Assembly: GCF_056712565.1 (NCBI RefSeq)
Contig: NZ_CM160072.1
DNA length: 64,000 nt
Strand: one strand, 5' to 3'
Position 1 is the first letter of the stretch; each line of letters starts with the position of its first letter. A program made the position numbers and the translations under genes. This document shows, piece by piece, positions 24,757 through 28,208 of this stretch. Below the pieces are notes generated by a model, which searched no databases, had not been told where the DNA came from, and was given only the letters and a program-made list of their open reading frames with translations.

Positions 24757-25715
24757 ACACCACTAGTTAAAACCAGTAACTCAGCAAAGTCGCAAAAAAT
24801 ATTAATCCATAGTGATTATTTAAACAATGAAATTGCGATTAGGATAAATAGATTTAACTTTCTCGTTCCTTTCTCTCCTTATACTAAAGAAATAATCATA
24901 TCAAAATAAAAATTCACAACAGTGCAACATTAAAAAATACAACCAACAAACAATCCTATATACAAGGCACATCTCCAGAATATAAAAGCACAGACAAACA
25001 ACCTAAAAAAAAACCATACATATAAATTATTTTATAGGTAAAATAGATTATATATTCTCATAGCTACCACAAACTATACTAGCCTGAACTATATTTATTC
25101 TGCTGCAATCAATGCATACATAACACAAATATCACTCAGGTACACTACTCAAACCACGCTGGGATTTTTCCTCAAGTTATAATCATCACCCCGAAAATCA
25201 TTCGGCATTTACTCATTAAATAGTCACCCCATAGGCCTGTACATGTTTACTCAGAAATATACATCCTTTTCTCTGTCATAAACCCTCTGATTAATCATAG
25301 ATAAATACTTGTGACACCAATCTTTTTCCTTAAAGGAACGAATTGTTGTGTAGAAGGAGATAATATTATGTCAAAAAAATATCAGCCTTTGCTTATAACT
25401 CATTATATGTCAACATGGGTCACTATAACGGAAGCAGTTGAGATCACTACCAAAGCCATAAAACAAAAAATTACTCCTAGCGATATTTATCGTCATGCCT
25501 TGAGTGGCAACATCCTACTATCGGTCTATTTCCAGTCTCCTGTGATACTTAAGAAGATACAAACTTTTAATGGAAAAATAAAATTCAGGCAGTTTGTGGG
25601 AGACCTACTTGATAAACTATGCATGCTTGACAGGGACGGTTTTATTTATGGTCAAAATTTAAGACTCTGTACAGAAGCCAGATATATTTGTCCTGTGCAA
25701 CAAATTATAGATACC
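24757..25715. other. AT-rich, largely non-coding tract; probable degenerate right arm of the HPI and its junction with core DNA
   Basis: Base composition drops sharply after the fyuA terminator (long A/T runs, no convincing ORF until ~25.3 kb) and returns to typical coding composition near 25715. The track ORF 25311-26117 begins inside this tract. Confidence 0.5.
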
Positions 25716-28208
25716 CCCCTGTTACGCAAACTCAACCAGTTTCGTACGTTTGTTCGTAATGTCCGCCCGGGTGATGAACTGGATGTCCCGGCACAAGTTA
25801 GTGAAAAAAATTTAACCCCGCCGCCGGGTAACAGCAGTGGCAACCTTGAGCAACAGATAGCCAGTACTTCACAGCTAATTGGATCTCTGCTCGCCGAAGA
25901 TATGAACAGCGAGCAAGCGGCAAACATAGCACGTGGATGGGCCTCTTCTCAGGCTTCAGGGGTAATGACAGACTGGTTAAGCCGCTTCGGTACCGCAAGA
26001 ATCACGCTGGGCGTGGATGAAGATTTCAGCCTGAAGAACTCCCGTGACGGCAACCCTCGAAAATGGCGATTCGATGCAACAAACAGTGAACTATGTGCCG
26101 AACGTCACGAATGCTGAAATCACGCTGGCAGCCTCGAAGGATCCGGTGATTGCCGACAATAACGATCTCACGACACTAACAGCACCGTCGCTGATACAGA
26201 GGGCAATGCGATAGCCAACACTGAGGTAACATTTACTCTACCGGAAGATGTGAAGGCGAACTTCACGCTGAGCGATGGCGACAAAGCGGTTACTGATGCC
26301 GATGGCAAAGCGAAAGTCACGCTGAAAGGTACAAAAGCAGGCGCTCATACCGTGACAGCATCGATGGTTGGCGGTAAGAGTGAGCAGTTGGTGGTGAACT
26401 TTACTGCGGATACGCTCACTGCGCAGGTTAATCTTAACGTTACCGAGGACAATTTCATCGCCAATAACATTGGAATGACCAGGCTACAGGCAACAGTGAC
26501 TGATGGAAACGGCAACCCAGTAGAAGGTATAAAAGTTAATTTCCGCGGAACCTCCGTCACGCTAAGCAGCACCAGCGTTGAAACGGATGATCAGGTTTTC
26601 GCTGAAATTCTTGTGACAAGCACCGAGGTCGGACTAAAAACAGTTTCAGCCTCTCTGGCAGATAAACCTACTGAAGTCATCTCGCGATTACTGAATGCCA
26701 AGGTAGATGTTAATTCTGCGACGATTACCAGTCAGGAGATACCTGAAGGTCAGGTCATGGTCGCACAAGACATAGCAGTTAAAGCTCACGTTAACGACCA
26801 GTTTGGCAACCCGGTGACGCATCAACCCGCGACATTCAGTGCAGCGCCATCCTCGCAAATGATCATCAGCCAGAATACGGTCTCTACTAATACGCAGGGA
26901 GTAGCCGAGGTCACCATGACGCCTGAAAGAAACGGCTCGTATACTGTAAAAGCATCCCTAGCGAATGGAGCTTCACTTGAGAAACAACTGGAGGCTATTG
27001 ATGAAAAACTGACACTCACGTCCAGTCCGCTTATCGGTGTCAATGCTCCTAAAGGCGCTACTCTGACGGCAACGCTAACCTCTGCAAATGGCACTCCAGT
27101 GGAGGGTCAGGTCATCAACTTTAGCGTAACGCTAGAAGGTGCGACGTTAAGTGGCGGAAAAGTGAGAACCAACTCTTCAGGTCAGGCTCCAGTCGTTCTG
27201 ACCAGCAATAAAGTCGGTACATATACGGTGACTGCATCGTTCCATAACGGCGTCACAATACAGACACAGACAACCGTGAAGGTTACTGGCAACCCAAGCA
27301 CCGCACATGTTGCTAGCTTTATCGCTGATCCGTCGACTATCGCCGCCACCAACAGTGATTTAAGTACCTTAAAGGCAACGGTTGAGGATGGCAGTGGTAA
27401 CCTGATCGAAGGTCCCACTGTGTACTTCGCCTTAAAAAGCGGCTCCACCACATTAACGTCATTAACAGCGGTGACCGATCAAAACGGAATCGCGACAACA
27501 AGCGTGAAAGGTGAGATAACGGGGAGCGTCACTGTAAGCGCAGTCACAAGCGCAGGTGGAATGCAAACAGTAGATATATCGCTAGTGGCAGGCCCAGCAG
27601 ACGCCTCGCAGTCCATCCTTAAGAACAACCAGTCATCACTGAAAGGGGACTTTACCGATAGTGCTGAGCTACATCTTGTTCTGCACGATATATCAGGCAA
27701 TCCGATCAAAGTTTCTTAAGGGATAGAATTTGTGCAATCAGGTACAAACGTGCCCTATATGAAAATTAGCGCAATTGATTACAGTCAAAATATCAACGGT
27801 GATTACAAAGCTACTGTTACAGGAGGCGGAGAGGGTATCGCAACGCTGATCCCCGTATTGAATGGTGTTCATCAGGCGGGTCTGAGTACCACGATAGAAT
27901 TCATTAGCGCGGAAACCAGACCAATGACGGGTACAGTGTCAGTGAATAGTGCAAACCTACCGACAGCTTCATTCCCTTCGCAGGGATTTACCGGGGCGTA
28001 TTATCAGTTGAATAATGACAACTTTGCACCAGGAAAAACGGCGGCTGATTATTCGTTTTCAAGCTCGGCCTCCTGGGTAGGCGTTGATGCTACTGGTAAA
28101 GTGACATTCAAAAATGACGGTGATAGCAATACTGTAATAATCACAGCGCCCCCAAGATCCGGTGGTGCTATTTACCAAACAGTTCCTCCTGAATCGCGTT
28201 CGGTGTGA
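25716..28208 (+). pseudogene. yeeJ: Decayed inverse-autotransporter (invasin/intimin-like) adhesin with Big-1 Ig-like repeats: internal deletion, frameshifts and an in-frame stop
   Basis: Three consecutive reading-frame pieces: an N-terminal-like piece (…RKLNQFRTF…ARITLGVDEDFSLKNS) ending at 26117; a frame-shifted piece encoding Big-1 repeat sequence (VTATLENGDSMQQTV…ITLAASKDPVIADNNDLTTLTA); then the 489-aa Big-1-repeat ORF 26250-27719 and the 158-aa ORF 27732-28208, which are in the same frame separated only by a TAA at 27717-27719. Location between the HPI and yeeL/shiA matches where yeeJ sits in E. coli (recollection). Confidence 0.6.

Follow-up and report, generated by a model that had tools for sequence, protein, structure and literature searches.

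The stretch of DNA considered here, hereafter the window, comprises 64,000 nucleotides (nt) of contig NZ_CM160072.1 (NCBI RefSeq assembly GCF_056712565.1) and belongs to an Escherichia coli strain that is positive for both the yersiniabactin high-pathogenicity island (HPI) and the pks island. Between fyuA of the HPI and yeeL lies a remnant of yeeJ, the gene of an inverse-autotransporter biofilm adhesin. The gene order in the window is ybtE, fyuA, the yeeJ remnant, yeeL, shiA, and amn, while that of K-12 is asnT, yeeJ (7020 nt, 2339 amino acids (aa); b1978), yeeL, shiA, and amn; the studied region therefore occupies the yeeJ position. Two features mark the remnant as an orthologue: it lies between yeeL-shiA-amn and asnT (or the island inserted there), and its pieces have a nucleotide identity of 92-95% to K-12 and three other yeeJ alleles, in the same order. 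With a probability of about 0.95, the region represents the yeeJ orthologue of an E. coli that carries both islands, reduced to a non-functional pseudogene with multiple lesions. A previous reading of the sequence alone had regarded it as such an inactivated adhesin gene, and this is borne out by a 5' fusion, an internal deletion, frameshifts, and a nonsense codon, in agreement with the call of the Prokaryotic Genome Annotation Pipeline (PGAP). Nothing was found that counts against pseudogene status itself.

Extent and Identity of the yeeJ Remnant

The DNA derived from yeeJ extends from 25722 to 28180, which amounts to about 2.46 kb, or roughly 35% of the K-12 gene. The sequence-only reading had assigned the adhesin to 25311..28208; the remnant does lie in that interval, of which only 25722-28180 originates from yeeJ. 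Lesions were mapped by tblastn of the K-12 YeeJ protein and by nucleotide alignment to K-12 (locus L001) and three other yeeJ alleles, those of 13E0725 (L004), N3 (L005), and Z1323HEC0011 (L006), the last being an intact 2465-aa YeeJ allele that matches the window up to 28180. In the three-frame alignment, K-12 YeeJ yields three colinear pieces, which together with the nucleotide comparison map the deletion endpoints, the frameshifts, and the nonsense codon. The first covers YeeJ aa 74-184 at 25722-26045 (frame 3, 90% aa identity, E 6.6e-56), the second aa 1415-1461 at 26044-26184 (frame 1, 93.6% aa identity), and the third aa 1564-2229 at 26181-28175 (frame 3, 82% aa identity, E 0). With E values of 0 and 6.6e-56, the matches to YeeJ lie far beyond chance.

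At the nucleotide level, these pieces correspond to three segments on the plus strand. Segment A (25722..26043, K-12 aa 74-184) contains the C-terminal half of the LysM domain, a linker, and some 60 residues from the start of the beta-barrel domain, and is 92.8% identical to K-12 (L001 3214-3545) by blastn. Segment B (26045..26183, K-12 aa 1415-1461) is shifted to the +1 frame with respect to the other two segments. Segment C (26184..28180, K-12 aa ~1461-2229) carries 5 Big_1/Invasin_D3 repeats followed by Invasin_D4 and is interrupted by a TAA codon.

Segment C is without one 104-aa repeat of K-12, a difference that is allelic. The corresponding 312-nt gap relative to K-12 near 26518 was considered as a fourth deletion and rejected, as the 13E0725 allele is colinear with the window across the gap; the difference is a variation in repeat number among yeeJ alleles and not a lesion. 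No closer intact allele was found among the matches listed, where non-HPI alleles are at most 94% identical over the remnant. The Z1323HEC0011 allele is only 83.6% identical over most of segment C, and the alleles of yeeJ are mosaic.

The HPI Border and the Chimeric Reading Frame

The 5' truncation of yeeJ is located at 25721..25722 on the plus strand, as defined by alignments to K-12 and to the HPI of strain fS10a (L008), which is of the type carried by an integrative and conjugative element (ICE). Here the sequence passes from codon 118 of an HPI hypothetical gene to yeeJ codon ~74, halfway through LysM. What has been lost at this point is the remainder of the island's right arm, its right direct repeat, and the intergenic DNA between asnT and yeeJ that holds the yeeJ promoter, together with yeeJ codons 1-73, which encode the signal peptide and the first half of LysM. 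No copy of the repeat of the asn-tRNA 3' end was found between fyuA and yeeL. The sequence-only reading had described the adhesin as adjacent to the HPI junction; its location is as described, yet the gene is not merely beside the junction. On the alignments, yeeJ is the HPI junction itself, with the right-border deletion running into the gene.

The surviving AT-rich right arm of the HPI occupies 24721..25721 on the plus strand, 3' of fyuA, with a GC content of about 0.29-0.40, and stops at the border-deletion junction inside an open reading frame (ORF) that is complete in the ICE-type HPI. This arm is 99.5% and 98.5% identical to two parts of the fS10a island (L008 8102-9116 and 9337-10050), the match reaching 25727, beyond which L008 continues with the rest of a 308-aa ORF, alpA, and a type IV secretion system (a VirB-type transfer module). 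Within the arm, a 220-nt AT-rich stretch that separates fyuA from the hypothetical gene in the ICE-type HPI (L008 9117-9336) is absent from the window (~25013-25015), and an A/C homopolymer run at the same place also varies between HPI-positive strains.

The fusion has created a chimeric ORF of 249 aa at 25368..26117 on the plus strand, which consists of aa 1-118 of the HPI protein, YeeJ aa 74-184, 24 out-of-frame codons, and a stop. The sequence-only reading had already recognized the ORF at 25311-26117 as a chimera; its N-terminus comes from the HPI hypothetical gene, YeeJ aa 74-184 follows from 25722, and the YeeJ part ends at ...FSLKNS (26043). The ATG at 25368 corresponds to the start called by PGAP in an almost identical strain, and the GTG at 25311 is an upstream alternative in the same frame. 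The parental 308-aa gene downstream of fyuA (fS10a, L008 9691-10617) shares 98.5% nucleotide identity with the window up to 25727, and its protein matched no Pfam or NCBIfam family.

Internal Lesions and the 3' Deletion

Downstream of the border, the remnant carries several further changes. A 9-nt in-frame deletion after 25756 is seen relative to all four reference alleles. The main internal deletion has its junction at 26043..26045 on the plus strand, where K-12 yeeJ nt 551-4243 are missing and an orphan G stands at 26044; this large deletion had been anticipated from the short length of the gene. The net loss is 3692 nt relative to K-12, which shifts the frame, and the gap measures about 4.6 kb against 13E0725 (with its IS3 removed) and 5.2 kb against N3. 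Alignment of the two sides of the junction revealed no flanking homology. The deletion takes the rest of the beta-barrel (K-12 IAT_beta aa 125-400) and about ten Big_1/Invasin_D3 repeats.

As had been proposed, the repeat sequence then continues in another frame, with YeeJ aa 1415-1461 (VTATLENGDSMQQTV...TLTA) at 26044-26184, and shifts a second time into the frame of the ORF beginning at 26250. This return, from about 26184, is the result of a 1-nt deletion at 26183..26184 on the plus strand (K-12 CAGCAACAG, window CAGC-ACCG). The frame of segment A is thereby restored, but out-of-frame read-through has already been stopped at 26115-26117. The next ORF, of 489 aa, starts at a GTG inside a repeat and is in frame with the 158-aa ORF that follows; the two are split, as the sequence-only reading stated, only by the nonsense codon TAA at 27717..27719 on the plus strand, where both K-12 and the HPI-positive strain AR_0374 have GAA.

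The gene's 3' terminus has been removed by a deletion that was absent from the sequence-only reading and is added here. Its junction lies at 28180..28181 on the plus strand, where 763 nt are missing relative to the intact Z1323HEC0011 allele (L006 11282-12044). The loss covers ~112 codons at the end of the reading frame with their stop, plus 426 nt of the adjoining intergenic DNA. Compared with K-12, 19 nt stand in place of 453 nt (L001 9673-10125); K-12 was dropped as the reference for the 3' end, as its similarity fades before the junction, whereas L006 gives a clean deletion. Everything from K-12 aa 2230 onward is gone, including aa 2246-2315, which match Intimin_C weakly (E 0.01, short of the Pfam threshold); Fig. 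1 of the study that characterized the protein (PMC5595812) shows YeeJ with a terminal domain of the C-type lectin kind. The residual yeeJ-yeeL intergenic DNA at 28181..28335 on the plus strand matches the sequence upstream of yeeL in K-12, L004, and L006 at 96-98% identity, and the stop at 28206-28208 is a chance stop within it.

Domain Content and Predicted Loss of Function

The remaining domains are of the same types as those of K-12 YeeJ, namely LysM, IAT_beta, Big_1, Invasin_D3, and Invasin_D4. The immunoglobulin (Ig)-like repeat passenger is recognizable, with matches to Big_1 (E 4e-69, 5 stretches), Invasin_D3 (E 9e-34), and Invasin_D4 (E 6.5e-7); according to Pfam, the 489-aa ORF has five Big_1/Invasin_D3 repeats and the 158-aa ORF has Invasin_D3/D4. 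About 5 Ig repeats are left versus 14-15 in K-12 YeeJ. The IAT beta-barrel (PF11924) is matched only at profile positions 3-64 of 279 (29.8-30 bits), in the chimeric ORF, versus positions 2-279 in K-12 YeeJ, and about 80% of the barrel is lost. A Sec signal peptide is not present, the homology to YeeJ starting at K-12 aa 74 and the 118 upstream codons belonging to the unrelated HPI ORF, and the C-terminal lectin-like tip has been removed by the 28180/28181 deletion. The frame is not continuous, consisting of three frame segments and an internal TAA. In a strain with 99.9% identity, PGAP annotates the locus as a pseudogene, 'frameshifted; internal stop; incomplete; missing N-terminus and C-terminus'.

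Judged by the established architecture of inverse autotransporters, the adhesin is predicted to be inactive, because the signal peptide, most of the barrel, and the C-terminal lectin-like domain are gone. Since the promoter is missing as well, what is left of the Ig-repeat ORFs should yield no exported protein, and the gene is presumably no longer expressed.

Distribution and Decay in Other Genomes

The remnant is widespread among E. coli. Of 5426 complete E. coli genomes, 2036 contain the interval 24700-28400 (3.7 kb) at a coverage of at least 80%, with an identity of at least 99% in 1995, and the segment spanning the HPI-yeeJ junction is present in 2236 genomes. The structure is thus shared by other HPI-positive genomes, among them AR_0374, which has GAA in place of TAA. 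All HPI-type remnants examined have the internal deletion and the 1-nt deletion. The TAA codon was considered as a universal feature of HPI-linked remnants, and this was rejected: an exact 34-mer containing it occurs in 1151 of the 5426 genomes, compared with about 2036-2236 for the remnant. The TAA is a secondary lesion, since only about half of the HPI-linked remnants carry it and HPI-negative strains have it as well.

Further decay is specific to lineages. Insertion sequences (IS1, IS2, or IS3) interrupt some copies of the remnant (H1, H12, H31, H71), a 1-nt deletion at 28056 is present in AR_0374 and 382634_2f, and 382634_2f also has a 13-nt deletion. Such private damage across strains fits neutral decay and argues against any retained function, that of the chimeric ORF included.

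Disruption of yeeJ is also seen outside the HPI context. The gene has been independently disrupted in many HPI-negative lineages by IS3, IS150, other insertion sequences, and other types of deletion, examples being O139:H1 pig strains and ST540 (loci L004 5272-6485, H14, H28, and H140-H152), and is a recurrent target of decay across the species.

Comparison with Known Systems

Relative to K-12 yeeJ, the window shares the locus and segments of 92-95% nucleotide identity, but differs in being a remnant with two frameshifts and a nonsense codon that is devoid of the promoter, the signal peptide, half of LysM, most of the barrel, about ten Ig repeats, and the lectin-like domain. The characterization of YeeJ found the intact gene in only 40% of 96 genomes, noted that truncated yeeJ is frequent and linked to the asnT/HPI hotspot, and used CFT073 as a yeeJ-negative comparator (Martinez-Gil 2017, PMC5595812). 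The yeeJ remnant itself is therefore already known; the sequence-only reading amounts to a rediscovery that is correct, with base-level endpoints added here.

The island is of the type common in E. coli. A study of HPI-positive strains of the E. coli reference (ECOR) collection described a unique deletion at the fyuA border that affects the adjacent backbone in all of them except ECOR31 (Schubert 2009, PMC2606025). The window displays the same arrangement, in that the AT-rich arm behind fyuA is truncated, the right direct repeat is missing, and a deletion reaches into the backbone; it does not differ in kind from the common-type HPI, to which the present analysis contributes the endpoints. With the ICE-type HPI (ECOR31, ICEEc1-like; fS10a, L008), the window shares the ybt-fyuA core and the AT-rich sequence up to 25727, whereas the ICE-type island keeps the full 308-aa gene, alpA, and the VirB-type conjugation module, all three of which the window has lost.

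A third comparison concerns E2348/69, an HPI-negative enteropathogenic E. coli strain. It has the TAA codon and the identical 3' deletion junction, and is 97.5% identical to the window over 27272-28700. Unlike the window, it carries no HPI, and its asnT-proximal intergenic DNA, up to 59 nt upstream of the yeeJ start, is joined by another 5' deletion to yeeJ nt ~5787. This remnant has extra 13-nt and 1-nt deletions as well.

Origin and Order of the Lesions

From these comparisons, the following order of events may be inferred. The common E. coli HPI is located at asnT, right upstream of yeeJ. One illegitimate deletion in an ancestor would have taken the HPI right arm, the right direct repeat (attR), the yeeJ promoter, and the first 73 codons, thereby immobilizing the island and leaving the HPI hypothetical ORF fused to YeeJ halfway through LysM. 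The remaining yeeJ DNA would since have drifted neutrally, and the remnant would travel with the HPI as homologous recombination in the flanking DNA carries the island from one E. coli to another. The HPI has been reported to spread along with its flanks by recombination (PMC2606025), which would account for about 2,000 genomes sharing the remnant.

Several points weigh against this account in its simplest form. E2348/69, a B2 strain free of the HPI, has both the TAA and the 3' deletion, about one in two HPI-linked remnants is without the TAA, and remnants have probably recombined with one another. In addition, the chimeric ORF keeps the upstream region of the HPI gene, so that it could be transcribed. 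HPI-negative genomes of the E2348/69 type are about 17 in number, that strain included; in them, asnT is followed by 245 nt of the usual intergenic sequence, which then runs into yeeJ at nt ~5787 (L009 2343-3700; L003 11692-13050). Both the TAA and the identical 3' deletion junction are shared between genomes of this type and the window, and the TAA also occurs in HPI-negative 382634_2f; these two lesions, at least, are therefore not consequences of the HPI border deletion. They either pre-existed in the allele beside which the island became fixed or were moved by recombination.

It is conceivable, if somewhat less probable than its opposite, that yeeJ was already dead or tip-less in a B2-type ancestor before the border deletion, in which case the gene beside which the island became fixed was an expendable pseudogene and not a functional adhesin killed by it. 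The HPI-negative genomes can be read in another way, as rare cases in which loss of the HPI left a scar; no such scars were reported among ECOR strains (Schubert 2009, PMC2606025). That yeeJ was intact until the arrival of the island, and that all lesions follow from HPI integration and the border deletion, appears rather doubtful. The 5' truncation is physically the border deletion of the island, and the internal and 1-nt deletions occur in every HPI-type remnant examined, both of which favor such a course. However, the E2348/69-type genomes with the TAA and the same 3' junction retain the asnT-proximal intergenic DNA that HPI-positive strains have lost, which places at least the 3' deletion in an HPI-free allele or requires its movement by recombination, and the TAA is absent from HPI-positive AR_0374.

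Whether the chimeric ORF or the 489-aa Ig-repeat ORF could represent a functional new gene also deserves consideration. The chimeric ORF is widespread and retains the native 5' region of the HPI gene, and PGAP predicts a protein from it (WP_000039786.1, 'inverse autotransporter beta domain-containing protein', 250 aa in the annotated strain). Nevertheless, it contains neither a signal peptide nor a complete domain. A 1-nt insertion in AR_0374 just after its ATG shifts the frame and alters the called ORF, which is therefore not conserved, and in others (H71) it is interrupted by IS1. The 489-aa ORF, for its part, depends on a GTG within a repeat and is ended by a lineage-specific TAA, and a new function for either ORF is very improbable. 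Finally, that the frameshifts and deletion are assembly or sequencing artefacts hiding an intact gene is next to inconceivable despite a published warning that repetitive adhesin genes such as upaH were mis-assembled (PMC5595812), given identical junctions in 2036 independently finished genomes, 5' and 3' junctions in unique non-repeat sequence, and an internal junction that joins barrel to repeat without homology.

The lesion map records, at base resolution, the scar that marks the right-hand border of the common E. coli HPI. One and the same deletion took attR, immobilized the island, and decapitated the neighboring adhesin gene, and extraintestinal pathogenic E. coli and B2 strains are therefore scored as 'yeeJ-negative'. 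The junctions at 25721/25722, 26043/26045, and 28180/28181 are useful markers for HPI spread through flanking recombination, and annotation of the small ORFs as functional proteins of the 'Ig-like' or 'IAT beta domain' kind should be avoided. Beyond annotation, the remnant matters little.

Flanking Genes and Neighboring Islands

Upstream of the remnant, the yersiniabactin HPI genes ybtE (20991-22568) and fyuA (22699-24720) are present. The window begins inside the HPI, the left end of the island (intB side) lying beyond the 64 kb; asnT itself is upstream of the HPI and outside the window, within which only three downstream tRNA-Asn genes were found. On the other side, yeeL, encoding a family-9 glycosyltransferase, occupies 28339-29391 on the minus strand and is followed by shiA (29703-31019) and then amn. 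The yeeL gene is intact (~350 aa) in the window and in most strains, and is annotated as a pseudogene in K-12 MG1655.

Further downstream, the segment 34084-38400, between a tRNA-Asn gene at 34088(-) and another at 38321(+), is inverted relative to the K-12-like order and contains nac/gltC, cbl, asnU, and yeeO. From 38558, a P4-type integrase is followed by ORFs resembling ClbQ (240 aa) and ClbP (504 aa, beta-lactamase fold). The inversion, together with the integrase and the Clb-like ORFs, corresponds to the pks (colibactin) island in the published 'configuration 1A' (PMC8209727).

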